From: Myxococcales bacterium
Lineage (GTDB): Bacteria; Myxococcota_A; UBA9042
DNA: 12,056 nt
Assembly (NCBI GenBank): GCA_037441385.1
Contig: JBBISH010000158.1
Location: 1 to 12,056 of the forward strand
Reading direction: 5' to 3'
Below the pieces are notes generated by a model. It saw only the letters and a list, made by a program, of their open reading frames with translations. It had not been told where the DNA came from and ran no database searches. Below, in pieces: positions 1-12,056 of this stretch; within the stretch, counting starts at the first letter, position 1; each line of letters opens with the position of its first letter. A program made the translations under genes and the position numbers.

Positions 1-144
1 CGCCGCACCCCGCGCCGCACCCCGCGCCGCACCCCGCGCCGCACCCCGCGCCGCACCCTGCGCCGCACTCCGGGCCGCACTCCGCATCGCACGACGCCCC
101 GCATCGCGTGCCGCATGAGACGGCGCACCCGGCGACCCACGATG
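1..144 (+). repeat. 12-bp coding tandem repeat CGCCGCACCCCG, degenerating to the right
   Basis: Four perfect units at 1-48, a one-mismatch unit at 49-60, then increasingly diverged 12-nt units to about 144 that keep a His codon every fourth codon. The array probably continues left of the window. Confidence 0.95.
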
Positions 145-860
145 GCGGCGAGCACACCAAGACTGCCGGGCCGGCTGCGGATCCCGCGGGCCCGCACCTT
201 GGCAGCGACGGCGGCGGACCTGCCGCAGCCGGGCCACATGACGCAGGCGGAATTACGGAATCCCACTTGGGCGACGCCTTGGCGCCGCACGCGTCAGCAT
301 ATGCGGGAGGCCCGGCTGTGGCGTTGGAGCCCAGCCTGACCTCGATGGACGCCTACCGGGCTGCAGCCGGAGTCGCGGCGGGTAGCGTTGGGGCCCCAAC
401 GGGTGGGGCGTCTGTCAACCCGCGGTTGGCCAACGAACTCGACTTGCGTGGCCTGTCGCGGACGCCGTCGGCCATCGCGCCCACCCCGGTGCCCATGGAC
501 GACGCCCACCACGGCACGGAAAGTAGCGGGGGCGAACGCGATCCAACCGGCCTCCACTTGGGCATACCGCAGATTGGGACGCCACAGGTTCACTCGGTTC
601 ACGTTGCGGCGGACGCGCTTGCGGCGCCCCATCTTGCGCCGGTGCCCGAGTTGCCGCACGTACCCGACTTGACGCATGACGGCGACTTGCGACCGACCCC
701 GCTCCCCAGTGGTCACCACAGTTTTGGGCCCATCGATACAGATCTTGACTTTGGCGATCACGATCGCGGGCTCATCGTCGACCACGGCGGCGCTGGACAT
801 GGGGAACACGTTGGCGCGGACCTTGGCAGCGACGATGCACATGACCACCATGGCTTGTGA
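1..860 (+). CDS. Partial (5'-truncated) His/Pro/Gly/Asp-rich low-complexity protein, probably disordered; positional and compositional analogue of IniB/Rv0340-type proteins
   Basis: The frame of the 108..860 ORF is open from position 3: (PHPA)5-PHSG-PHSA-SHDA-PHRV-PHET-AHPA-THDG..., so the GTG at 108 is probably internal. I count 34 His in 285 residues. It ends ...SDDAHDHHGL, TGA 858-860. Third codon positions are mostly G/C. The IniB-like label rests only on composition and position next to an IniC-like gene. Confidence 0.7.
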   Translation, partial: PHPAPHPAPHPAPHPAPHPAPHSGPHSASHDAPHRVPHETAHPATHDGGEHTKTAGPAADPAGPHLGSDGGGPAAAGPHDAGGITESHLGDALAPHASAYAGGPAVALEPSLTSMDAYRAAAGVAAGSVGAPTGGASVNPRLANELDLRGLSRTPSAIAPTPVPMDDAHHGTESSGGERDPTGLHLGIPQIGTPQVHSVHVAADALAAPHLAPVPELPHVPDLTHDGDLRPTPLPSGHHSFGPIDTDLDFGDHDRGLIVDHGGAGHGEHVGADLGSDDAHDHHGL

Positions 861-958
861 GGCAACCTGGATGATCGCTGCTTCTGCGTCGGTCGGTCGT
901 GCGTGGGCGAGCGCGCCCCAGGTTCGCCGCACCGAGCTAGGCGGCGCGAGAGATTGCA

Positions 959-2638
959 ATGCGGTTGGCGTTTACCCTTGACGACTACCAGCGTGCGGTC
1001 GAGTCGTTTGCCCGGCGGCTGCCCGATTTGCTGGCGCGGACGTCCGAAACGGCCGACTTGGCGGTTGATGTCGAGCGCTTGGCCATCGCCGAGACGCTGC
1101 GCGCCCGCTTTACCGTCGCCGTGGTCGGCCAGATGCGTGCTGGCAAATCGACGCTGCTCAACGCCTTGATTGGCCGCGACTTGGCGCCGACCGGCATCAC
1201 CGAGACTACCGCGACGGTCAACTGGTTTCGCTGGGACCCCGGCGAGCGCACGCAGGCGTTTCGCGTGCACTGGGCCGACGGCAGCGAGGCCGACTTCCCG
1301 CTGGCCGCCATCGCCGACTGGTTGCACGCCGGGGCCCACACCGCCACCACGCGGTGGCTCGACTTCTTTAGTTCGTCCGCGTTCTTGCAGACGGCCTTCC
1401 TGGTCGATACACCGGGCACCCGCAGCACTCTGGATCGCCACGAGCAGGCCGCGCACAGTTTTGTCGAGGGCGAGGCCGCCAGCGGTCGGGCCGACGCGAT
1501 CTTGTACGTGGTCAACCCCGTGGCGCGCGAGAGTGACCGCGACCTGCTGGCGCAGTTTGGCGACCTGACGCGGATGGCGGGCGCCAGCGTGCACAACAGC
1601 ATCGCCGTGGTGCAGAAGTGGGAGCACCTGGACCAGGGCCCGTGGCAGTCGGCCGACCCCGAGGCGGAGATTGCCCGCAAGTGCGCCCACATGTTCGAGC
1701 AGCTGCGCACCCAGGTCGCGGCGGTGGTGCCGGCGAGCGGGATGTTGGCGCGCTGTGCGGCGGACCCGGCCAACGGTCCGGCGTGGGAAGTCCTGGCGCG
1801 CATGGCCGCCCAGTGCGACGACGACGATTTCGAGGTGCTGACCGATTCGGAGGACCTGTTCTGTGAAGCAGACGAGGTGTTTGCCGGTGGCGTGCCCAGC
1901 CAGTTGGAGCGGCAGGCAGTGGTGCGGCAGATCCCCTGGCCGGCGGTGCGGCTGAGTCTGCGCGAGGCGCGAAGGCGGCGCCTGGGCGATGCGGCGGCGC
2001 TGCTGGGTCGGGTCCGCGCGCTGAGCGGCATCGACGCGCTGGCGCAGCTGCTGGGCGAGCGCTTCTTGAAGCAGGCGGCGCTCATCAAGGCCAACACCGT
2101 GTTGCGGCGGGCGTGGCTGCCGTGCCAAGTGGCGCTGGCCCGTTTGGGCGCCACGGATCAGCACCTGCGCGACGAACTGGGCCACTGCCAGGCGCTGCGG
2201 CAACGCCTAGCTGCGGTCGCCGATGCACCGCTGCGGGGCGAGCTCGACGTCTTCGTCAGCGCCCGCGAACTCGAGCTGCGCGCCGCCGTCCAGCGGGTCC
2301 GCGAACTGCGGGCCGACCTGGATCAAGTGCGCGAGGAGGCGCTGCGCAACCACGAGGCCCTGGACGGCGACTTGCGGACCATCGGCCTCTTGCTCGAGAC
2401 CCCGGGTCTTTCGCCCGCGGAGCGAGGCATGGCGCTGCAGGTCTGTGGCCGTCAGGGGCACGCCATCGCCAGCCGCCTGGGCCTGCCGGCCGACGCGCCC
2501 ATGGCGGTGCTCGTCGAAACGGCGGAGGAACGACTTGCCTGGGCCCAGGCCCGCAGTGGTCGCGGCGCGCGCCACGGGCCGATCTTTGCCCATATCGCCG
2601 AGCGGCTGGGGCAGATGCTCGAAGCGTTGGAGGCGTAG
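959..2638 (+). CDS. Bacterial dynamin-like GTPase (Dynamin_N domain), IniC-like, 559 aa
   Basis: G1 GQMRAGKST (from 1127), G2 region APTGITETTATVNWFR, G3 DTPG (1406-1417), atypical G4 QKWE (1613-1624). The segments VVPASGMLA and SGIDALAQLLGERFLKQAALIKANTVL resemble mycobacterial IniC as I recall it. Helical/coiled-coil C-terminal half with no clear TM segment. Confidence 0.9.
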   Translation: MRLAFTLDDYQRAVESFARRLPDLLARTSETADLAVDVERLAIAETLRARFTVAVVGQMRAGKSTLLNALIGRDLAPTGITETTATVNWFRWDPGERTQAFRVHWADGSEADFPLAAIADWLHAGAHTATTRWLDFFSSSAFLQTAFLVDTPGTRSTLDRHEQAAHSFVEGEAASGRADAILYVVNPVARESDRDLLAQFGDLTRMAGASVHNSIAVVQKWEHLDQGPWQSADPEAEIARKCAHMFEQLRTQVAAVVPASGMLARCAADPANGPAWEVLARMAAQCDDDDFEVLTDSEDLFCEADEVFAGGVPSQLERQAVVRQIPWPAVRLSLREARRRRLGDAAALLGRVRALSGIDALAQLLGERFLKQAALIKANTVLRRAWLPCQVALARLGATDQHLRDELGHCQALRQRLAAVADAPLRGELDVFVSARELELRAAVQRVRELRADLDQVREEALRNHEALDGDLRTIGLLLETPGLSPAERGMALQVCGRQGHAIASRLGLPADAPMAVLVETAEERLAWAQARSGRGARHGPIFAHIAERLGQMLEALEA

Positions 2639-3730
2639 ATGCCATCGCCCACCGCCCGCATCGCCATCGACTTTGGCACTACCCGCACCAAGGCCGCCTA
2701 CCTGGACCCGCAGACTGGCCGGGCGCGGATGGTAATGCTGGGGCACGGCGTGCCGACGCTGCCGTCGCTGTTCTTCCTGGAGCGTGGCCAGCCGCCGCTG
2801 CTCGGTTACGAGGCCGAGGCCTGGATCGAGCGCGAGCCGGCCGGTGCCGTGCGGGTCCTGAAGCGCCGGCTTCGCGAGGTCCGCGTGCGGGCCGGTCGCA
2901 CCGAGATTTCGCCGACCGAGCTGCTGGGCCTGTTGCTCGCCCGCATCCGGCAGCGGGTGGGCGAGGAGGTCACGGCCTTTGGCGGCGTGATGCCGGACGA
3001 GGTGGTGCTGACCCTGCCGGCGGCGGGCTCGGGCGCTGGGCCCAACGTCGAGAAGGTGATGCACGATGCGGCCAAGGAGGCTGGCTTTGCCAAGGTGACG
3101 CTGGTCTCCGAGCCCGAGGCCGCGGCCCTGGCCTACGTCCGCGACGCTGGCGCCCAGGCCCCGGACCTGCTGGTGGTGCTCGACTGCGGCGGCGGCACGG
3201 TGGACTGGACCTGTCTGCAGCGCCGGGAGGGACGGCTTGTCCCGATGACCGAGTGCCCGCCCGGCGGCGACGACAAGGTGGGTGGCGAGTTCGTCGATGA
3301 CGAGTTGCTTGCCGTAGTGCGGGCGCGCGTGGACCAGAGCGGCGACGAGGCGGCGGCGACGGAGCTGGAGCGGCGGCAAGAGGCGCTGGTCGGCCATCTG
3401 CGCGGGCTGCGCGAGCGGTTCTGCCTGGGCCGCGGTCGGCAAGTGGCGGCGGGCGATGCGCTGCACTTGGGTGGTTTGACGGTGGCCCTGGGTGCCGAGG
3501 AGGTGCGGCTGGTCGTCGAGCGGCGGTTCGTCGACCAGGTGTGCCTGGGCTTTGGCCGGTACTTGGAGAGTGTGCGGCGACATGGGGGTGTGGCGGAACC
3601 GACAGTGTTGTTGGTGGGTGGCGCGGCGCGGATGCTTGGGTTGCGGGAGGCGTTGCAGGAGCGGTGTGGGTGTCGGCCGGTCGGCTGGGAGGAGAGTGAC
3701 TTTGCGCCGGTTTTGGGGGCGGCGGGGGTG
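2639..3730 (+). repeat. Copy 1 of a ~1.09-kb duplicated Hsp70-NBD coding module (paralogue at 5051..6140)
   Basis: Similarity starts exactly at the ATG (ATGCCATCGCC.ACCGCCCGCATCGCCATCGACTTTGGCAC) and ends shortly after CCGGTTTTGGGGGCGGC (PVLGAA). 70 of the first 80 residues are identical by manual count. Confidence 0.95.
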
Positions 3731-4870
3731 GGGGTTGAGGGGCTGAGATCCGCGGAAGACCCGATGCCCAGGGAAGAGGACACGGTTGAGACAGCCAAGC
3801 CGCCGACGCAAAAGGCGTCGGTCGCAGTCGAGGAGCAGCCCGCAACCGACAATCCGGAGGCGCTCGCAAAGGAACCTGTCATCGACGAACGCCTGCCGGA
3901 GATGGTGGCTCTGCGCCAGGTGCCGCCGCAGCACAAGCCGGCAGAGGGCGACGATTCCACCTTGACCGCACGGGCCAGCGAGACGCCAGGCAAGGCCGCA
4001 CCGCGACGGAGATGGATGTGGATCGCCTTGGTCCTCGTGGGCGCAACGCTCCTGGCCCATCAGGCTGGTCGGGTGTTGGCCGAGATCATGGCTAGGGTCA
4101 TCACGCAGGCCGATGCCAGTCAGACGCAATGGGAACGGGAGGTCGAGACTTCGGTGGCTGAGGCGGCTCCAGCAGCGGCGCCGGCGCCGGCAGTGGTGGT
4201 CGATGCGGCCGCAGCGCCCGTCCAGCAACTGGTGCCGACGGCCGATGTGGTCGAGCGGAGCGTGGGGGAGTCGGATGTGACGGTGGTGCCTGCCGAGGCT
4301 GCGGCGCCCCATGGTCCGGTCGAACTGAGCGATGCGCAGAAGGAGGCGGTGAAGCTGGCGAGCTTGGCTGAGAAGGCGAGCACCGCCAAGCTGAGGGTGT
4401 TGTACCTGAAGAAGGCCATCGAGAAGGACCCGGGGGAGCGGCAGTACAAGACGGCGCTTCGCAAGGCCGAGGCAGACCTGGAGGCGCAGACGCCGGTCGT
4501 GGCAAAGCAGGCGCCGGATGTGGCAGGGCCAACGGTGAAGATCAACGGCCACGAGTGGCAACGCGGGGACGCGGAGCGGCGGATGGACTGGACTGAAGCC
4601 AAAGCGTACTGCGCCGAGTTGAACTTGGCGGGTGGCGGCTGGCGGCTGCCGACCTTGGAGGAGTTGAAGGGGCTCATCGACAAAGGCCAGCCGACCTCGC
4701 CGAGCATCGTCACGGCCTTGCGGGCCACGACGCCGTCAGCATTTAGTGGCTACTGGTCCGGCGCGCACGCGTTGTCCGCGCTGGACCAAGCCTGGGGAGT
4801 CGACTTCAGCTGGGGCAACAGCTACTTCTATGACGACTGGCGCAAGAACCGCGTACGGTGCGTACGCTGA
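2639..4870 (+). CDS. Hsp70-family ATPase domain + linker + single TM helix + Ala/Pro/Val stalk + TPR-like helical hairpin + C-terminal Lcl/DUF1566 (C-type lectin fold) domain, 743 aa
   Basis: Hsp70 NBD motifs in order: IAIDFGTTRT (phosphate-1), LKRRL, VVLTLPA, SEPEAAALAY, LDCGGGTVD (phosphate-2), GGEFVDDEL, VLLVGGAARM (adenosine), APVLGAA. No substrate-binding domain follows. TM: PRRR-WMWIALVLVGATLLA (from 4013). TPR-like: YLKKAIEKDPGERQYKTAL. Lcl motifs: WQRG..MDWTEAKAYCAELNLAGGGWRLPTLEELKGL, YWS, AWGVDF..G, VRCVR*. The ATG directly follows the upstream TAG, with GGAGG just before. Confidence 0.92.
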   Translation: MPSPTARIAIDFGTTRTKAAYLDPQTGRARMVMLGHGVPTLPSLFFLERGQPPLLGYEAEAWIEREPAGAVRVLKRRLREVRVRAGRTEISPTELLGLLLARIRQRVGEEVTAFGGVMPDEVVLTLPAAGSGAGPNVEKVMHDAAKEAGFAKVTLVSEPEAAALAYVRDAGAQAPDLLVVLDCGGGTVDWTCLQRREGRLVPMTECPPGGDDKVGGEFVDDELLAVVRARVDQSGDEAAATELERRQEALVGHLRGLRERFCLGRGRQVAAGDALHLGGLTVALGAEEVRLVVERRFVDQVCLGFGRYLESVRRHGGVAEPTVLLVGGAARMLGLREALQERCGCRPVGWEESDFAPVLGAAGVGVEGLRSAEDPMPREEDTVETAKPPTQKASVAVEEQPATDNPEALAKEPVIDERLPEMVALRQVPPQHKPAEGDDSTLTARASETPGKAAPRRRWMWIALVLVGATLLAHQAGRVLAEIMARVITQADASQTQWEREVETSVAEAAPAAAPAPAVVVDAAAAPVQQLVPTADVVERSVGESDVTVVPAEAAAPHGPVELSDAQKEAVKLASLAEKASTAKLRVLYLKKAIEKDPGERQYKTALRKAEADLEAQTPVVAKQAPDVAGPTVKINGHEWQRGDAERRMDWTEAKAYCAELNLAGGGWRLPTLEELKGLIDKGQPTSPSIVTALRATTPSAFSGYWSGAHALSALDQAWGVDFSWGNSYFYDDWRKNRVRCVR

Positions 4871-4888
4871 GCCCCGACGATTCGACAC

Positions 4889-4904
4889 GCTCCGCGAGCG
4901 GAGC
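4889..4904. other. Short GC-rich inverted repeat GCTCCG-CGAG-CGGAGC just downstream of the Lcl-domain gene
   Basis: Perfect 6-bp stem with a 4-nt loop, starting 18 nt after the stop at 4870. No following U-tract, so not a classical intrinsic terminator. Confidence 0.5.
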
Positions 4905-5014
4905 AAACCCAAAAGCATCCTGCTGGCCGGCGATCCGCCGGGATCTCGACCCCTGTCAAGTCGATTTTCCCTGGAACCGGTGGGTAGCAGCAGGCTTTCG
5001 TGCCCGCTCTGCCC

Positions 5015-5043
5015 TTGCCTCGCACCCCAAACCGCAGCACAAT
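5015..5043 (+). promoter_or_regulatory. Putative sigma70-type promoter for a leaderless transcript of Hsp70 copy 2
   Basis: TTGCCT (5015-5020), 17-nt spacer, CACAAT (5038-5043), then 7 nt to the ATG at 5051. There is no Shine-Dalgarno sequence before this ATG. Confidence 0.45.
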
Positions 5044-5050
5044 CCCGGCC

Positions 5051-6140
5051 ATGCCATCGCCAACCGCCCGCATCGCCATCGACTTTGGCACCACCCGCAC
5101 CAAGGCCGCCTACCTGGACCCGCAGACCGGTCGGGCGCGCCTCTTGACCCTTGGGCACGGTACCCCGGCGATGCCGTCGCTGTTCTTCCTGCAGCCCGAC
5201 CAACCGCCGCTGCTGGGCCACGAAGCCGAGGCCTGGATCGAGCGCGAGCCGGCCGGTGCGGTGCGGGTGTTGAAGCGCCGGCTGCGCGAGCGGCAGACCG
5301 CGCCGGTGGCACCCGCATGTCGCCGACCGAGCTGCTGGCCGCCCTCTTGCTCCGCATCCGTGAGCGGGTTGGCGACGAGGTCCCGGCCTTTGCCGGCCAG
5401 GCGCCCGACGAAGTGGTGCTGACGTTGCCAGCCGCGGGTTCGGGCGCCGGGCCGCACGTCGAAAAGGTCCTGCGCGACGCGGCGCACGAGGCCGGCTTTG
5501 CCAAGGTGACCCTCATCTCCGAGCCCGAAGCGGCGGCCCTGGCCTATGCCCGCGAGGTGGGTGAGCAAGCACCGGAGCTGCTGGTTGTCCTCGACTGCGG
5601 CGGGGGCACGGTGGACTGGACCTGCCTGCAACGCCAGGGCGGGCGCCTCGTGCCGATGACCGAGTGCCCGCCCGGCGGCGACGACAAGGTGGGGGGCGAG
5701 TACGTCGACGATGAGCTGCTGGCAGTGGTGCGCGAGCGGGTCGACCAGAGCGGCGATGCGACGGCGATGGCCGACTTGGAGCGGCGGCAAGAGGCGCTGG
5801 TTGGGCATTTGCGCGGGCTGCGCGAGCGGTTCTGCATCGGTCGCGGCCAGCGGGTGGCGACGGGCGACACGCTGCACCTGGGAACGCTGGCGGTGGCGCT
5901 GACACCGGCGGACGTCCAGGCGGTGCTGGGTGAACGCTTCGTCGATCAGGTGTGCCTGGGCTTTGGTCGATACTTGCAGAGCGTGCGGCAGCACAGCGGT
6001 GTCGCAGCCCCCACCGTGCTGCTGGTGGGCGGGGCGGCGCGGATGCTCGGGCTCAGGGAGGCCTTGCAGGAACGCTGCGCGTGCAAGCCGGTGTGGTGGG
6101 AGAATAGTGACTTTGCACCGGTTTTGGGGGCGGCTTGGGT
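5051..6140 (+). repeat. Copy 2 of the duplicated Hsp70-NBD coding module
   Basis: Colinear with 2639..3730, with long identical stretches such as CCGATGACCGAGTGCCCGCCCGGCGGCGACGACAAGGTGGG and GGAGCGGCGGCAAGAGGCGCTGGT. Confidence 0.95.
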
Positions 6141-7281
6141 TGGGCTGGTCGCGGCCGCGGCCGCACAGCGAGAGGCAGGCGAAGCGCCCACACCAGAGAA
6201 GGAGGATGCGGCCCAGGTGCCGGTCGCGACGGCCCACGGGACGGAGCAGGCTGCTGCAGAGGAACCGCGCGAGGTTGCGGGCGAGCCGCCGAACGAGGGT
6301 GAGTCCTTCGCCGACGAGGTGCATCGGGAGCCGCCTGCTCCCGTTGCGCGGCGAGTTGGTCGTCCATGGCTGGTGGCGCTTGGGTTGGTGGGGACCGCAG
6401 CGCTGGGGATGACGGGTTTGATGAAGTGGTCGAAACCGATGGAGCCGCCGCGCGCGTGGGTTGCGCCGGGGCCAGCCCTGGGCCTGGGCGCCGAGCCCCA
6501 AGATGCGAACGGGTCGCCGTCCACGGCGCGGGACTCTGGCACTGGCACCGCGGAGGCGGTGGCGGACCGGGGCGACCGACCGAGCGCCACGGACACCGCC
6601 TTGGCACGACCAGAGCCGTCGGCCCAGCCAGCCGAAACCAAACCGCAACTCGACGCCACGATTTGGGTGGTGCTGCCGGCCAGTCCCGGCGACGGCCGTG
6701 CCTTGCGCGCAATCATGCGACAACCCGTCACGTTCGCCGAGTACGCCGAATGTGCCGGCGCCGGTGCCTGCCCGCCCGCACATTGGGAGGACGACTACTG
6801 CTTTGATTTGAACGGTAAAGTTCGACTTCCGCCCGAGACACGCCTGCCCAAGGCGCCCGCCGTATGCGTCGATTGGGACCAAGCGCGGGCTTGGTGCCGC
6901 TGGGCCGCGGGCAAGTCAGGCGTCGAAGCAAGTCGGGCGTCGCTTCCCGCCGCGTGGGATCTGCTCGACCTGCCGGCAGGCGCCGAGAAACCAGCGGCGG
7001 CAGAGGGCAACTGGATCACTTTCGAATGGGCTGAGGACTGTTGGGGCACGGCCGCCGCGCCGCCCGTGGGCCGCCGTCCTGTTCAAGACTGTGTGTTCGC
7101 CAAGGACGCGCCGTATGGCGAGCTGCCAGGGCGTCGCAAGACCCAAGTCCGGGTCGTTGGCAGTGGCTCGGCCCGCGAGAGCGCGCCCACCAACAGCGCG
7201 AGCAAGGATGTAGGGTTCAGGTGTGCCATTTGGGATCCAGACCTGGAGCCGGCCGGAAAGGGCCGACCGCGGGAGCCGTGA
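5051..7281 (+). pseudogene. Second Hsp70-NBD + TM + FGE-sulfatase (SUMF1/EgtB/PvdO-like, C-type lectin fold) protein, interrupted by a 1-nt frameshift near 5297 (true pseudogene or sequencing error); 743 aa if restored
   Basis: The N-terminus MPSPTARIAIDFGTT...LKRRLRERQ is in the frame of ORF 5000..5422. The rest (RAGGTRMSPTELL...) is in the frame of ORF 4858..7281. Alignment to copy 1 (GAG GTC CGC GTG CGG GCC GGT vs GAG CGG CAG AC- CGC GCC GGT) shows one missing base. TM: RRVGRP-WLVALGLVGTAALGMTGLM (~6367-6423). FGE-like motifs: VTFAEYAECAGAGAC, PAVCVDWDQARAWCRW, GN....EWAEDCW, VGFRCA. Confidence 0.88.
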
Positions 7282-7433
7282 ATGCCGTTGCCGTGTTTCC
7301 GATGCGTACGAGGTGGCGGTCGCTGGCCGTTCGCTACGACCACCGAATCCGCTTGGAGGGGCCTCATGGCGAGTGCAAAAAGCGGCTGGGGGGCAACGGC
7401 TTGCAGGTACCGGACAGAATTCGGAGTGGCATC

Positions 7434-8771
7434 ATGAGCGGTGGGGTCGACAAAACCAGCCGCGGCCTTGCCTGGCGCGCCACGCATCTAGCCGCCCTGC
7501 CGTCTCTGCTGCTTGCGGTCGTGGTGGCTGTCGCACCGGCGCCGGCAACCGCGGCCTGCAAGACAGACCAATCGTGCCAAAGTTGTGCAGACCGACTGCG
7601 CGACAGGCACGGCTGCTGCCCCGGCTGCTGGTATGTGTCGGACGCAGAGCGGGACGCCCAGCGCGCGAAACAGCGCGCCACGGAGGAAGCGGAGAGGGCG
7701 CGGGCAGCCGAGGAGCGTGCTCGCGCCGAAAGCGAGCGCGCTGAGCGACAGCGCGCGGTGGCCGAAGAACGTCGCCGTGCCGCCCGCGAGGCCGATCGAC
7801 GCGAGGAGGCGGCGCGCAAAGAGGCCGAGTCCGAGCGACGCGCGCGCGAGGAGGCCGAGTCGCGGAGCAAGGCGGCGACGGAGGCCGCCAAGCGCGAAGA
7901 GTTGGCTCGCCGTCGCGCCGAAGAACGCGCCAAGCAGGTCGAGGCCGAGCGCGAGCAGGAGCGCTTGAAGCTCGCGGCGAAGGCGGAGGAGAGGGCGGCT
8001 GCAGAAGCCACCGCGGCCCGCGAGGCGAGGTTGCTGGCCAAGTGCCAGCGCGACGAGGAAGATGCCGACTGCGTGGCGCTCCAAAAAGACTGTCACGACC
8101 GAGGCTTCCTGCGCGACGATGAGCTGTGCAAAGCACTTGGCTGGGCGGATCCGGACGACATGTGGAGCGGTCTAGTGCCGCGGGGCGTCGGAATTGGCGG
8201 GTTTCATGCCGAGTTGGGAACAGGGTTCCCGCTTCCAACTGCGGAAACCGTGCAACCCAAGCTCGTGGCGACCTTGTTGCAGCTACGGGGTCTCCAGCTT
8301 GCCGAGCCCTTCTTGTTGGGCCACGTTGGCTTGGGCTACTGGGGGAATCTGGCGTTTTCAGTCATCGGGAGCCAACCTTGGATTCTTGGCGCGGGAGCTG
8401 GGTTTGGCGTTGGCCCCAGCCTATTCTTGGGCAGTCACGTGGTCTTGTGCGTCGGGCCGGGTCTGGTGGCGAACGGCACTTCGGAAGGGGATCCCTACTT
8501 CGCGAGCACATTGGGTGTGATGCCGCGGGCACTGGTGCTCTACCGCTCGGTGTCTCGGACCTACCTGTACGTCAGTGTCCAGCCGACGTGGGACTTGGCC
8601 GGGCGCACAAAAGCAGCCAGTTTCGCGGATGAGTGGCGCTTCGATGTCGCTGCCGGCACCCGCGACTTCGAACTCGGTCTGTGGTTTGATGACATCCCTC
8701 ACGCCTACGCAACGTTTGGGCTCAGCTTTGGTTTCGGCGACCACGAGGCTTTTGTGGGTAGGAATCGCTGA
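7434..8771 (+). CDS. Secreted/outer-membrane hypothetical protein: signal peptide, Cys-rich N-terminal module, long E/R/A/K charged helix, 4-Cys module, C-terminal beta-barrel-like domain (~445 aa)
   Basis: GGAG at 7423-7426 precedes ATG 7434. Signal peptide-like LAALPSLLLAVVVAVAPAPATA, then CKTDQSCQSC...GCCPGC (6 Cys), about 130 aa of ERARAAEERARAESERAERQR-type helix, KCQRDEEDADCVALQKDC..C, then Gly/aromatic alternating strands (LLGHVGLGYW, ILGAGAGFGVG, TYLYVSVQPTW, WRFDVAAG, FELGLWF, YATFGLSFGF). An alternative in-frame GTG at 7278 overlaps the upstream stop. The ORF-track start at 7041 overlaps the upstream gene and is unlikely. Confidence 0.75.
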   Translation: MSGGVDKTSRGLAWRATHLAALPSLLLAVVVAVAPAPATAACKTDQSCQSCADRLRDRHGCCPGCWYVSDAERDAQRAKQRATEEAERARAAEERARAESERAERQRAVAEERRRAAREADRREEAARKEAESERRAREEAESRSKAATEAAKREELARRRAEERAKQVEAEREQERLKLAAKAEERAAAEATAAREARLLAKCQRDEEDADCVALQKDCHDRGFLRDDELCKALGWADPDDMWSGLVPRGVGIGGFHAELGTGFPLPTAETVQPKLVATLLQLRGLQLAEPFLLGHVGLGYWGNLAFSVIGSQPWILGAGAGFGVGPSLFLGSHVVLCVGPGLVANGTSEGDPYFASTLGVMPRALVLYRSVSRTYLYVSVQPTWDLAGRTKAASFADEWRFDVAAGTRDFELGLWFDDIPHAYATFGLSFGFGDHEAFVGRNR

Positions 8772-8913
8772 TGGCGAGCACGGGAGCCGGTGCCGCCCCA
8801 GAAATCTGGCCTGGCGGGAGTCGTGGATCAAAGTTCCCGCCCCGGCGCTGGCCACCACTACCGCCATGGCGCCGTGCCCATGGCGGGCCAGCCCGCGCTG
8901 CAGAGGGCGAGCC

Positions 8914-9513
8914 ATGAAGCGATGGACATCGATGACGGCGCGGACCCTGCTTCTGGCGTCTTGCAGCCCCTATGGGGCACCGCCCACATCCACGTCCCCC
9001 GTCGTCGCCGCACCGCCGGCACCTCTGTGTGCGCCCTTGGCGGCGGGGGCTAGCCATGCCACGCTGACGTATCACGTTGCTGCGCCCATCGCCGAGCCGA
9101 CTCCAGTGCCTACTGCCCAAGCCATGTCGGATCGCTTGATCGCCGCCGGAGCGTCGGGGGGCGACTTGCAGGTGTCCTTGGCGTGGAATGGCGCAAACGA
9201 CCTTGACCTGCATGTGGCGATGCCGTGCGGCAAAGAGTTGTCGTTTCGCGATGAGCACGACTGCGGCGGGCGGCTCGACGTCGACGCCAACTCGCGGCGC
9301 ATCGTGGACGATCCGGTCGAAAACGCCTTTTGGCCGGCCGGGGGCGCCGAGGCGGGCAACTACGTGGTGTCTGTGGAGCACTACAACCGGAACGATGGGC
9401 CCCTCGCCGTCAGCTACGCCGTCCGGGTCGTGATGGGCGGACGCTCGCAGACCTACACGGGGACGGTGCTTGCCAAGGAGCAGGTCGAGGTGGTTCGATT
9501 CGACTGGCGGTAG
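8914..9513 (+). CDS. Probable lipoprotein with a C-terminal DUF2135/YfaP-like beta-sandwich domain (~199 aa)
   Basis: GAGGG precedes ATG 8914. MKRWTSMTARTLLLASC gives a lipobox-like LASC with Cys17, although the h-region is short. A Pro/Ala/Thr tether follows, then LQVSLAWNGANDLDLHVAMPCG...GGRLDVDAN...PVENAFW...GNYVVSVEHY, the pattern typical of DUF2135/YfaP domains. The start codon is less certain than the domain. Confidence 0.8.
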   Translation: MKRWTSMTARTLLLASCSPYGAPPTSTSPVVAAPPAPLCAPLAAGASHATLTYHVAAPIAEPTPVPTAQAMSDRLIAAGASGGDLQVSLAWNGANDLDLHVAMPCGKELSFRDEHDCGGRLDVDANSRRIVDDPVENAFWPAGGAEAGNYVVSVEHYNRNDGPLAVSYAVRVVMGGRSQTYTGTVLAKEQVEVVRFDWR

Positions 9514-9553
9514 CCCTTCACCCTACTTGGCTCAGCCGCGCACGAGGCCGCCT

Positions 9554-11509
9554 ATGGATTTTGCCATCAACACGCAACTGGACGACCTTGCGGCGCGGGC
9601 GCTCAACTGCGCGCGCTCGGCCGGTGTGGCGGTCACCGACGACTTGGCCCAAGCGTTGGCGGCGCCGATTCCGTCGGCCGGCGCAACCGTGGCGGTGGTG
9701 GGCGAAATCAAGAAGGGCAAGTCGTCGATCGTCAATACGCTGCTGCGTCATCCGCACGCGTCGCCGGTCAGCTCGGATGTCGCAACGTCCGTGGCCTTGC
9801 GCTTCCGGCATGGCCCGGCGGCGACGGTAGTGTCGTTCTACCAGGACGAGGCTGGCGTTGCCGCGCCGCCCCTCACCATCCTACCTAGTCAGGTCGCCGA
9901 TTTTGCCACAGAGGCCGGAAACCCGGGCAATGTCAAATGGGTCGACCTGCTCGACGCCACGCTCCCGGCGCCGCTGCTGGCGCGCGGCCTGATCCTGCTC
10001 GACACGCCGGGCTTGGGCGGCTTGCACCGCAATCACGCTGCCGTGACGTGGCGCCACCTGCACAGCGTGGACGCCGTGCTATTCGTGACGGACTCGGTTG
10101 AGGCCGTGTTTTCGCGGCACGAGCTGGAATTCTTGCGACGAATCGCCGCGCTTGGCAAGTTCGTTGCCTTTGTGCAGGCCAAGTGCGACCTGGCGAGCCG
10201 CCAGCAGATCGAAGGCTTCCGCGACCGCAACCTTGCCATCCTTGCCGAGGCGCTGGGCCGCGATCCCCAGCAAGTTCCGTATTTCTTGACGAGCACGCAC
10301 CTTGCCCAGCGAGCGCTGGAGCGACCACAGCTCCGGCAGAAGTACTGGTCGAGCAGCGGTTTTGCCGACCTGGAGCAGTTTCTGGTGGGCCAGTTGCTGC
10401 CGGCCCGCGGCCGCGCCGCGCAGTGGAATCGGGTGCGCCAGGCGACTCTGCTGGCTCGGTCGGCGGCAGCCGTGGCCCGCGAACGCCATGGCCAAAACGA
10501 CCAACAGACGGTTGCGGCGCTGCAGCAAGCCCACGAAGCCGTGCGCTCGCGCGTCGAGCAGGTCAGCGAGCGGATTGAACGTGGTTTTGCCAAAGTGCAC
10601 GAGGCGTGGCTGTCGGGTATGGCCACCCTGCAGGAGCAAGCCCTGACCAAGCTGCAGGCCGATTTGGCGCCCGGCGCGGTGGGGCCGGTCTGGAAGACGG
10701 TGTCTGCCGAACTGGAGCTGTTGCTGGCCGAGCCGCGCACGGCCGTGGAGCGCGCCGAGCAACTGCTTGATCGGGCGCGCGAACTGGCGACAGAGCGCGT
10801 CGTGGCGGCGGCAACCTCGGCGCGCAGCGAGGCGTTGCGTCAACTGGCCAAGGCGGCGAGCGAACTGGGCGACACCGCGCAAGCTCCCGCGAAGGTCGAC
10901 ACCCACGAGGTGCGCGCCCTGCCCAAGGACCGCGTCTTCGACGTTCGCCAACTGACCGACCCGGAGGTGAGCCGGCTCGACCACGTCCTCACCAGCCTGG
11001 GCCTGGCCGGCACGATTGCTACCATGGTCGGCGCCGCCTTGCCGGGCGTAGGCTGGGTCGCCGGTGGCGCGGTCCTGGTGTGGATGACGCACCGGCGGAG
11101 CCACGCGGCGCAGCAGCGGCAGGCTACCGTCTTGCGAGCGCAGCTCATCGACTTGCTGCAGCGCGAGTTGCGCTCTGCCGCCATCGCTGGTCAGCAGGCC
11201 GTCGCTAGCCTGTTGGGCCAGCTTGGCCGGGAAGGCGCGCGGCTCCTGCGGGGCATCGTGGAGCAGCAGCGATTGCAGGCCGAGGCTGACCGTGCGTGGC
11301 TGCAGCGCGAGCGCGAGCGGGTCGTGCAGGGGCAGGAACAGAGCCAGCGCGACCTGGTGGCGACGTTGGCGACGGCCGCAGCCATCGAAGCCACGGCCAA
11401 GGCGCTGGCCGAGCAGATGCAGCGCCGGCAAGTCAGCTCGCCAGAGGGGTTGGGGGCGTCCAACGACGCGGCCGAGCCGACGCAGGCTGGTACCGTTTCA
11501 GAGCCGTGA
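9554..11509 (+). CDS. Bacterial dynamin-like GTPase, IniA-like, with a hydrophobic membrane-inserting segment (~651 aa)
   Basis: GAGG precedes ATG 9554; the ORF-track start at 9470 overlaps the upstream gene. G1 GEIKKGKSS (from 9701), G2 DVATSV, G3 DTPG in LLARGLILLDTPGLGGL (10001-10012), DAVLFVTD, G4 AKCD (10178-10189), SGFADL. Long helical neck/trunk and a hydrophobic stretch VLTSLGLAGTIATMVGAALPGVGWVAGGAVLVWM (~10985-11086) followed by HRR. Confidence 0.92.
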   Translation: MDFAINTQLDDLAARALNCARSAGVAVTDDLAQALAAPIPSAGATVAVVGEIKKGKSSIVNTLLRHPHASPVSSDVATSVALRFRHGPAATVVSFYQDEAGVAAPPLTILPSQVADFATEAGNPGNVKWVDLLDATLPAPLLARGLILLDTPGLGGLHRNHAAVTWRHLHSVDAVLFVTDSVEAVFSRHELEFLRRIAALGKFVAFVQAKCDLASRQQIEGFRDRNLAILAEALGRDPQQVPYFLTSTHLAQRALERPQLRQKYWSSSGFADLEQFLVGQLLPARGRAAQWNRVRQATLLARSAAAVARERHGQNDQQTVAALQQAHEAVRSRVEQVSERIERGFAKVHEAWLSGMATLQEQALTKLQADLAPGAVGPVWKTVSAELELLLAEPRTAVERAEQLLDRARELATERVVAAATSARSEALRQLAKAASELGDTAQAPAKVDTHEVRALPKDRVFDVRQLTDPEVSRLDHVLTSLGLAGTIATMVGAALPGVGWVAGGAVLVWMTHRRSHAAQQRQATVLRAQLIDLLQRELRSAAIAGQQAVASLLGQLGREGARLLRGIVEQQRLQAEADRAWLQRERERVVQGQEQSQRDLVATLATAAAIEATAKALAEQMQRRQVSSPEGLGASNDAAEPTQAGTVSEP

Positions 11510-11664: not shown

Positions 11665-11866
11665 GGCTTCACGGATCCGGCAACCGCCACCGGCCCAAAC
11701 ACCGCCGCCAAGTCGAGCACCGCCGCGTCGAAGGGCGGCAGCACCGGGGCTGTGTCAGGGCGAGGGGGTCTGCTGGGGCACCGATCAGAAACCCAGTCCT
11801 GGGGGGCAAACGTCGCGGCGGGTCGCGGCTGTGCCTGGTTCGTTGGGCCCGCTTGCGACCCACTGA

Positions 11867-12056
11867 GAGGGTGTGTACATATTATTCAGCCCCGAGCCGT
11901 GCCGTGATGAGGCGAATCATGGCGAGCGTCATCCAGGCCTTGCTGCTTGCGATCGTCTCTTCGTAGTCCTTTGACAGCCGACGGTTGCGCGACATCCACG
12001 CTAGCGTGCGTTCGACGATCCAGCGCCAGCGCACGACGACGAAGCCGGTCGGCTGC
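11867..12056 (-). mobile_element. One end of an IS5-family insertion sequence (IS1031-group-like), truncated by the window edge
   Basis: The transposase C-terminus is followed closely by a terminal-IR-like end reading GAGGGTGTGTACATAT on the + strand from 11867, flanked by TGA (11864-11866). This fits the GAG end and TNA target known for the IS1031 group. The other end is outside the window, so neither IR nor target duplication can be confirmed. Confidence 0.85.
11882..12055 (-). CDS. tnp: IS5-family transposase, C-terminal 57 aa (partial)
   Basis: Manual minus-strand translation [57 protein letters not shown], containing the IS5 RWxVERT..W...RRL.KDYE signature. It is absent from the supplied ORF track because the start lies outside the window. 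Confidence 0.93.

Follow-up and report, generated by a model that had tools for sequence, protein, structure and literature searches.

IniA and IniC are two distinct dynamin-like GTPases encoded together, LeoA/LeoBC of the Eleos system are likewise a GTPase pair, and DLP1 and DLP2 of Campylobacter jejuni (5OWV) are encoded side by side. To our knowledge, no receptor or activator is known for IniA/IniC, DynA, LeoABC, or the C. jejuni pair, and the question at stake is which cue sets the site and moment at which a bacterial dynamin acts. Here, we analyze a 12,056-bp stretch of DNA (the window), which is the complete contig C158 of a 6.6-Mb, 221-contig myxobacterial genome (91% complete, ∼70% G+C). 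The window encodes two dynamin-like proteins (DLPs), named DLP-A (from the first dynamin gene, its DLP1) and DLP-B (from the second, its DLP2), and two Hsp70-like proteins, Hsp70A and Hsp70B, with the nucleotide-binding domain (NBD) of a DLP-linked family. We consider it probable that the window holds a copy of a widespread, uncharacterized dynamin/Hsp70-like module in which the gene order has been permuted, genes have been added, and part has decayed. The module is a variant of the bacterial dynamin-pair theme, of which the window copy is an atypical example; it is found in many phyla yet has never been studied, and in print we found only the adjacency of its genes noted.

The published hints are brief. 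In the available part of Liu, Noel and Low 2018 (PMC6104087), which deals with paired DLPs, the C. jejuni pair shares an operon with a third gene, and a DnaJ-like domain is noted on the DLP next to Nostoc BDLP1, which hints at an Hsp70 link. The accessible portion of Boot et al. 2017 (PMC5760070) places a dnaK-like gene beside iniR in M. smegmatis, and that of Jilly et al. 2018 (PMC5827413) describes a cyanobacterial “chaperone clade” with a DnaK-domain gene directly downstream of the bacterial DLP (BDLP) and proposes that Hsp70 activity is linked to membrane remodelling. In the full-text literature, a scope that leaves subscription journals outside, we found no study of the dynamin/Hsp70 module. 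The first-pass annotation of this DNA, which knew of no description of such an architecture, was nearly right, since the excerpts from Jilly 2018 and Boot 2017 do no more than touch on the adjacency.

The link between dynamins and this type of Hsp70 NBD is far beyond chance and is conserved whether one searches from the NBD or from the dynamin. Residues 1 to 385 of the NBD, used in a word-indexed search, returned 29 proteins at E ≤ 1e-10, and 25 of them were aligned (alignment A2). This alignment defines the DLP-linked NBD family, with IDFGT..RTK and LDxGGGTxD motifs and a place beside DLP-A/DLP-B; the window genes belong to it. A pattern scan of genome contigs with Hsp70A alone gave no matches, and it was the alignment-based scan with A2, covering one genome per species, that yielded 38 loci, 27 of them with an NBD match at E ≤ 1e-29. 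A dynamin gene is found near the NBD in 23 of these 27 loci (21 detected by tblastn; L020 and L033 by Pfam Dynamin_N), and the remaining four have <2.7 kb of upstream sequence. Weak NBD matches (L042 to L050; <90 bits; cyanobacteria, Streptomyces, and others) have no DLP nearby and were excluded as nonmembers. In the reverse direction, ten DLP-A orthologues (alignment A3) were run against metagenome contigs, giving 45 loci, 44 of which have DLP-A by profile. An NBD gene is present in 21 of the 26 DLP-A loci with ≥500 bp of downstream sequence and in five more with shorter flanks, and DLP-B is present in 37 of the 42 DLP-A loci with ≥500 bp upstream. The two tests are not fully independent because the profiles were built from the loci of the first scan. 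Natural fusions also join the two proteins: NBD-Dynamin_N fusions occur in P0023, P0024, and P0025 (Pfam-confirmed) and at L022:4854-8219, and a DLP-A-NBD-Sel1 fusion (P0061) is found in the best 150 of the 724 DLP-A-type clusters that a profile search of 1.84 billion representatives returned at E ≤ 1e-30. Thus, the co-occurrence of dynamin and Hsp70-like genes, proposed from the window alone, is borne out by both searches and by the fusions.

The distribution of the module is at once broad and patchy. It has spread over at least six phyla, including Myxococcota, Planctomycetota, and Proteobacteria, at 30 to 50% identity, the range that DLP-A orthologues also show across phyla. Within the phylum of the window, full-length DLP-A orthologues were found with this query in 3 of 401 genomes, and the NBD family is present in 1 of 10 congeners and 0 of 30 other relatives. 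No DLP-A relatives were found on viral contigs or plasmids. Cultured carriers include Belnapia mucosa (L018) and Aporhodopirellula aestuarii (L036). In the genome of the window, one DLP-A, one DLP-B, and two NBD-family genes are present, all on the 12-kb contig.

The heterotypic DLP pair is conserved as well: the dynamin genes are adjacent in most genome loci and ∼6.9 kb apart in the window, the spacing noted in the first-pass annotation. The usual order elsewhere is DLP-B, DLP-A, NBD gene, with stops and starts often overlapping or abutting, whereas the + strand of the window reads open reading frame 0 (ORF0), DLP-A, Hsp70A, Hsp70B, X, Y, DLP-B. The earlier description of this arrangement is exact in its details, namely, seven co-directional genes, a DLP-A stop codon that abuts the Hsp70A start (TAG-ATG at 2636-2641), and 40 nt between the Y stop (9511-9513) and the DLP-B ATG (9554). 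Its general idea of a dynamin pair enclosing cargo genes has to be given up, given the adjacent dynamin genes of most loci. Among the nearest relatives, the dynamin genes are adjacent (L014, L059), swapped (L058), or scattered (G003). Because these orders vary, we regard the enclosing layout as a local rearrangement in a lineage of fluid gene order. Coordinates of the features are collected in Table 1.

Table 1. Features of the window and selected features of related loci (coordinates without a locus prefix refer to the window)
Feature	Coordinates	Strand	Evidence or remark
ORF0, 3′ part of a His/Pro/Ala/Gly-rich low-complexity protein gene	3-860	+	Open at the 5′ end of the window
DLP-A, soluble dynamin-like GTPase, 559 aa	959-2638	+	Dynamin_N 1.4e-17
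Hsp70A, 743 aa	2639-4870	+	HSP70 3.8e-11, MreB_Mbl 7.7e-7, Lcl_C 1.1e-18
Hsp70A parts	NBD ∼2639-3790; linker; transmembrane (TM) helix ∼4004-4078; coiled segment; Lcl_C/DUF1566 4550-4867	+	Pfam, hydropathy
Hsp70B, frameshifted tandem paralogue	5051-7281	+	84% mean DNA identity to Hsp70A
Hsp70B parts	TM helix ∼6367-6423; degenerate FGE-sulfatase-like domain ∼6709-7008	+	Hydropathy, Pfam
Gene X, secreted orphan protein	7434-8771	+	ATG, signal-like N terminus
Gene Y, lipoprotein	8914-9513	+	Lipobox LLLASC, Cys17
DLP-B, IniA-like dynamin-like GTPase	9554-11509	+	Dynamin_N 1.5e-13
Dispersed repeat, ∼95 bp	11772-11867	.	∼30 genome matches, 81-98% identity
Insertion sequence end (3′ end of putative transposase ORF)	11866-12056	-	ORF fragment 11882-12055
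Peptidase U, examples	L016:5243-6370; L030:5441-6313; L039:6544-7494		∼30 more loci
Fourth dynamin of the L022 region (Victivallales metagenome-assembled genome)	L022:8667-10625

Both Hsp70-like proteins have the ATPase fold and catalytic motifs of DnaK and HscA, and their best solved matches are DnaK NBDs (1.4e-12). Unlike those chaperones, they have no substrate-binding domain or lid, the HSP70 Pfam match ending at about profile position 376 of 599 in both, and they carry a TM helix and foreign C-terminal domains. NCBIfam scores are 62 to 71 bits against cutoffs of 620 to 823 (HscA, 70.6 versus 708.55; DnaK, 48.4 versus 822.55). With the substrate-binding domain missing and scores so far below the cutoffs, a canonical Hsp70 chaperone of the DnaK/HscA kind is ruled out. 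The ATP-site motifs DFGTT, DxGGGT, and GG (phosphate-1, phosphate-2, and adenosine) are invariant in the 25 NBDs of A2, as are D11, G13, T14, K18, D182, G184-G185, and G327-G328; since the nucleotide motifs are kept and the substrate-binding domain is absent, the NBD is predicted to be an ATPase and not a classical chaperone. A family profile that includes Hsp70A scores Hsp70A at 454 bits, Hsp70B at 341, and the genome's other Hsp70-type genes at 111 to 121. One hydrophobic helix follows the NBD in both proteins, in Hsp70A with RRR on its N-terminal side by hydropathy.

Compared in 30-residue blocks, Hsp70A and Hsp70B are 57 to 100% identical up to about residue 360 and ≤40% identical beyond, where the tails are unrelated. 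Hsp70B has a 1-nt deletion relative to Hsp70A near 5297-5301, which splits the match into 5051-5296 and 5290-6210; translation from an internal ATG at 5317 would yield 654 aa and leave out the phosphate-1 motif. Run X1, probably from the source sample, has an independently built Logan contig that matches 5230-5682 without gap or difference, and because this contig spans the site unchanged, the frameshift is not an artifact of the present assembly. Hsp70B is probably a decaying duplicate. The claim of two NBD/TM/ectodomain proteins therefore stands for Hsp70A and falls for the second gene, which starts at ATG 5051, in a frame other than that of the long ORF listed from GTV 4858, is broken in frame, and has a partial FGE-sulfatase match (2.9e-7; profile positions 38 to 124 of 255).

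The two dynamins differ in their predicted relation to the membrane. DLP-A scores 64.7 bits with Dynamin_N (cutoff, 27), has intact GQMRAGKS and DTPG motifs, and contains no hydrophobic segment; its best Protein Data Bank (PDB) match is 5owv_C, a C. jejuni DLP chain (5.4e-10; first ∼140 residues only). DLP-B scores 51.6 bits against the same cutoff, keeps GEIKKGKS and DTPG motifs, and has IniA (6j72) as its best PDB match (1.8e-17; residues 34 to 256, i.e., the G domain only). Of the IniC/IniA-like pair first proposed, the IniA-like label suits DLP-B; the best solved match of DLP-A is the C. jejuni chain. In DLP-B, a hydrophobic hairpin is encoded at ∼10985-11080. Such a hairpin, most often turning at an FPP, is found at residues ∼480 to 530 in 12 of 13 members of the DLP-B family and is absent from 9 of 10 members of the DLP-A family. 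With a hairpin in DLP-B and nearly none in DLP-A, one partner would be membrane inserted and the other soluble. A Dynamin-like_hel_bact domain was seen only in relatives L030 and L037.

The C-terminal tail of the NBD protein is replaced freely. A Pfam domain of one of eight kinds is present in 19 of 44 complete tails (Sel1, six; FGE-sulfatase, four; TPR, three; Ank, two; Lcl_C, Big_2, β-helix, and Zn-ribbon, one each), and none is present in the other 25. The 29 proteins of the NBD search end in FGE-sulfatase, Big_2, WD40, TPR, or Lcl_C. Tandem paralogues with different tails occur elsewhere too: L014 has three (one unknown, one FGE-sulfatase, one Big_2), and L024 has two (Lcl_C and Sel1). A crude hydropathy scan places a TM segment in the tail of 14 of 56 NBD ORFs, and most tails are cytoplasmic-type repeats, so the membrane-anchored, outward-facing form of the window appears to be a minority subtype. 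The earlier proposal that lectin-fold domains act as sensors survives in part: the variable C termini look like input modules and here belong to lectin-fold families and lie beyond a TM helix, whereas such anchoring is a minority feature of the family. In a Thermoguttaceae metagenome-assembled genome (MAG), the tail of L038:6021-7748 combines a cyclophilin-type prolyl isomerase (2.6e-49) with FGE-sulfatase (8.3e-38).

Directly upstream of DLP-B in ∼34 of 74 related loci lies the gene for a ∼290-aa protein, here called U, which is predicted to be a conserved cytoplasmic papain-like peptidase. Copies of U are 35 to 58% identical across phyla, give weak Pfam Peptidase_C39_2 matches (best, 2e-10), and share the invariant motifs Q...TC, DHA, and ND(P/S)G, as in a papain-like Cys/His/Asn-Asp site. 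With no U match at E ≤ 1e-8 in the 91%-complete genome, the canonical four-gene cassette (U, DLP-B, DLP-A, NBD) is ruled out for the window, and because U is missing, the window copy may be incomplete. Nor is U found in L014, L015, L058, and L059, the nearest relatives.

The remaining genes of the window, X, Y, and ORF0, appear to be local passengers, as they have no tblastn match in any of the 74 related loci. X has a signal peptide and contains Cys-rich motifs and a long helix rich in charged residues, its C-terminal part being rich in Gly and hydrophobic residues; it has no Pfam match even at an E value of 5 and no match in 40 related genomes. A single-sequence AlphaFold model of X is confident only for the long helix (residues 70 to 206), which leaves its supposed β-barrel character unconfirmed. 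Y is predicted to form an all-β, DUF2135-like domain with a DLDLHV...GGRLDVD motif. Nothing credible was found for Y in Pfam up to an E value of 5, its AlphaFold model, made without an alignment, is unusable (pLDDT, 38), and its Atlas feature matches are small hypothetical proteins, with one cluster (19% DUF2135; score, 0.92) as a lead only. The Y domain occurs in 8 of the 40 relatives, mostly inside ORFs of 900 to 1,460 aa and in genomes without the dynamin module. ORF0 is rich in A (16%), P (14%), G (14%), and H (12%) and has no Pfam, NCBIfam, or PADLOC match; its place resembles that of iniB, a repetitive low-complexity protein gene upstream in iniBAC. A PHPA-type tandem repeat is shared by positions 1-76 of the window and 11317-11392 of contig C163 (L052), which ends in it and holds the 5′ part of such an ORF with a TM helix. 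Because the same repeat ends one contig and begins the other, C163 and C158 are probably neighbors split by the assembler, and the start and TM helix of ORF0 probably lie at the end of C163. Joined, the two parts would specify a disordered, His-rich protein with a TM anchor.

The module is a candidate dynamin activator, with a dedicated Hsp70-fold ATPase, an exchangeable input domain, and sometimes a fusion to the dynamin itself, and it could explain how bacterial dynamins are switched on. In the mechanism that we favor, the C-terminal tail of the NBD protein would bind a signal or site, the Hsp70-fold domain would use ATP to switch DLP-A or give it a platform for assembly, and the two dynamins together would then remodel or reseal the inner membrane. 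The Lcl_C and FGE-type tails of the window would lie outside the inner membrane, and, placed there past the TM helix, they would receive their input from the periplasm or envelope. We infer each step of this relay (sensing, switching, remodelling) from the associations, which are what the sequences record. As to the proposed modelling of the NBD with each dynamin, a predicted complex of DLP-A and the NBD is consistent with their pairing as a weak pass: the median ipSAE is 0.58 against 0.00 for the best of three controls, the partner pLDDT is ≥80, and runs share ≥63% of contacts. The calibration of the prediction tool has 116 of 157 solved complexes reaching the mark, against 2 of 215 mismatched pairs; scores of ≤0.60 account for 18 of the 157 solved complexes and for both passing mismatches, counts that hold only roughly here because our own alignments were used for the prediction. 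By that calibration, most passes at such a score are false unless the pairing is likely beforehand, as it is here because of adjacency and natural fusions.

Several observations weigh against a module of this kind working in the window as described. The complex prediction is a pass of the level just given, the frame of Hsp70B is broken, and U has no match at E ≤ 1e-8 in the window's genome (91% complete). Co-transcription within the window would have to cross gaps of 98 to 180 nt. Elsewhere, five of the 26 flanked DLP-A loci have no NBD gene (L055, L082, L088, L093, and L097), and in the congener G003, DLP-A is alone on a 5-kb contig while the NBD and DLP-B genes are convergent. An NBD without a substrate-binding domain could also act on the dynamins, for example in disassembly, instead of relaying a signal. 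The window copy itself is of lower value, being rearranged, without the peptidase, with one broken paralogue, and from an uncultured organism.

A more specific version of this mechanism, which we put forward tentatively, is a surveillance system in which the Hsp70-fold ATPase would be a switch like those of STAND (signal transduction ATPases with numerous domains) and NLR (nucleotide-binding leucine-rich repeat) proteins, the exchangeable tails the sensors, the papain-like peptidase the licensing factor, and the dynamin pair the effector. In most lineages the tails would then be repeats on the cytoplasmic side, and in the window's myxobacterium they would be lectin-fold domains in the periplasm. 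If this is true, bacterial dynamins gain a dedicated receptor, and their recruitment is explained.

Of the distinct functions that such a module could serve, immunity is a real but minority prospect in our judgment: the Hsp70-fold ATPase and its tail would be an NLR/STAND-type sensor-switch in a conflict system that, upon detecting a phage or another invader, triggers the dynamins, with U where present, to seal or sacrifice the membrane. The patchy occurrence (DLP-A in 3 of 401 genomes of the phylum, the NBD in 1 of 10 congeners and none of 30 other relatives), the spread over six or more phyla at 30 to 50% identity, the variable repeat and lectin tails with tandem paralogues, and the Q/C/H/N-D catalytic set kept by U all fit this reading. 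So do adjoining conflict genes, including RES-Xre (L034), ParE (L020), SocA/Panacea (L039), and GAP1-N2 (L036), an nSTAND1 protein and an integrase in L040, and HEAT_CxxC_PD-DEXK (5e-110) in L016. Dynamins serve in phage defence, the subject of papers on DynA, and the Eleos LeoA/LeoBC models match both DLPs weakly; furthermore, the available part of a 2026 preprint from the Aravind laboratory holds that, in tripartite systems, an HSP70-like NTPase domain can stand in for the STAND NTPase. However, PADLOC run on 122 flanking ORFs from nine loci gave only three or four convincing defence matches, and because the flank matches are mostly generic, we did not use them as support for a defence island. 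The module was not found on viral contigs or plasmids, the NBD proteins match no PADLOC model, the window is flanked only by an insertion sequence end and dispersed repeats, and no killing effector is evident. If the immune reading is true, a Hsp70-based sensor-switch with a dynamin effector is added to prokaryotic immunity designs.

Hsc70 uncoats clathrin, which offers a model for releasing dynamin assemblies. Envelope-stress repair of the iniBAC type, which we hold to be about as uncertain as an immune role, would have inner membrane that is damaged resealed or shed by the dynamins, with the Hsp70-like protein acting as a localization or turnover factor and the tails as tethers. IniA is the nearest solved relative of DLP-B, DLP-A-like, DLP-B-like, and NBD genes follow one another in the actinobacterial locus L051, and the tails of the window would face the envelope; the dnaK-like gene of the M. 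smegmatis ini locus and the DnaK-domain gene downstream of “chaperone clade” BDLPs, as far as the excerpts cited above (PMC5760070 and PMC5827413) describe them, agree with this picture. A housekeeping system would be expected in most relatives, though, and this one was found with our query in 3 of 401 genomes of the phylum. Tethering alone hardly accounts for the tail turnover and the tandem paralogues, and the cytoplasmic papain-like peptidase of the canonical cassette would have no role.

That all seven genes form one envelope-spanning machine, with X (in the outer membrane) and Y (as a lipoprotein) as structural parts, is very improbable and, as a claim of the first-pass annotation, largely refuted: the genes are co-directional with short gaps and no terminator-like sites between them, X has a signal peptide and Y a lipobox, and dispersed-repeat copies flank the presumed unit, but X, Y, and ORF0 have no homologue in the 74 related loci and so are not conserved with the module, X is missing from 40 relatives, the domain of Y is found unlinked elsewhere, the nearest relatives L014, L058, and L059 keep their dynamins side by side, and Hsp70B is broken.

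Compared with the described systems, the module shares the pair of dynamins and differs in what accompanies it. IniA/IniC resembles it in having two distinct GTPases encoded together, and differs in that the module NBD has variable tails, the canonical cassette has the peptidase, and no IniR-like regulator was seen at the window locus, where no comparison with IniR was made. The third gene of the C. jejuni operon encodes an HcpA-like β-lactamase and not an Hsp70-like ATPase. The chaperone clade, in the accessible part of its description, is confined to cyanobacteria and to genomic context and has no variable tails, peptidase, or fusions; in our pattern scan, cyanobacterial NBD matches are weak and have no DLP nearby.

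Eleos was considered because DLP-A matches the PADLOC models LeoA (2.1e-11) and LeoBC (1.7e-10), and LeoBC aligns to DLP-B residues 166 to 593 at 3.2e-15. It is ruled out: the LeoA match covers DLP-A residues 9 to 93 only, the LeoBC matches are at 1e-10 to 1e-15, the genes are nonadjacent, and PADLOC's Eleos has no Hsp70-like component. Flanking Der GTPases match the same models equally well, so the matches are unspecific. Of the PADLOC search suggested for the contig, these weak dynamin matches are what came back, with none on the NBD proteins or ORF0.

The DO-GTPase/GAP1 systems of Kaur, Burroughs, Iyer and Aravind 2020 (PMC7159879) have, in the part available, paired GTPases with HSP70-family proteins, some without a peptide-binding domain, and variable sensor/effector modules including FGS domains. 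They too are ruled out, as they belong to a separate TRAFAC family, whereas the window GTPases are Dynamin_N proteins and GAP1, which defines those systems, is absent from the window; the word dynamin is absent from that paper. The accessible portion of Kaur 2021 places HSP70 in other GTPase systems and holds nothing specific to a dynamin/Hsp70 module. In Aporhodopirellula aestuarii, a GAP1-N2/GAP1-M protein (L036:15009-17759) lies 2.5 kb downstream of the module.

Little surrounds the genes of the window itself. The flanks consist of the insertion sequence end and dispersed repeats only. The former, a putative transposase fragment by its sequence type, has 99 to 100% identical copies at the ends of several other contigs and breaks contig C158. 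Another copy of the ∼95-bp repeat lies at C163:10390-10478, upstream of the presumed start of ORF0, so that copies stand on both sides of the presumed ORF0-to-DLP-B unit; the repeat has no Rfam family, and its fold is no better than those of shuffles (z, 0.26). No Rfam family matched in the window. A scan for promoters and terminators returned a single promoter-like site and three that resemble terminators, none of them intergenic; shuffled sequences gave more, and the scan is uninformative because the host is a high-GC myxobacterium.

Some related loci have features of their own. On C163, upstream of the ORF0 start, are a porin-like ORF and an RND-type transporter ORF, labeled by eye only. 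The Victivallales MAG (L022) has four dynamin G domains: DLP-B, DLP-A, a 1,121-aa NBD-dynamin fusion, and a further DLP after a small ORF. In a closely related Myxococcales MAG (L041), the region at 7944-11391 looks degraded: the DLP-A match, on the minus strand, covers residues 1 to 380 only and adjoins a plus-strand fragment of an NBD, 70 residues long, after which DLP-B comes on the minus strand. As fits a myxobacterial origin, a congener's locus holds sigma-54/FHA regulators, Ser/Thr kinases, and Dicty_CTDC repeats.

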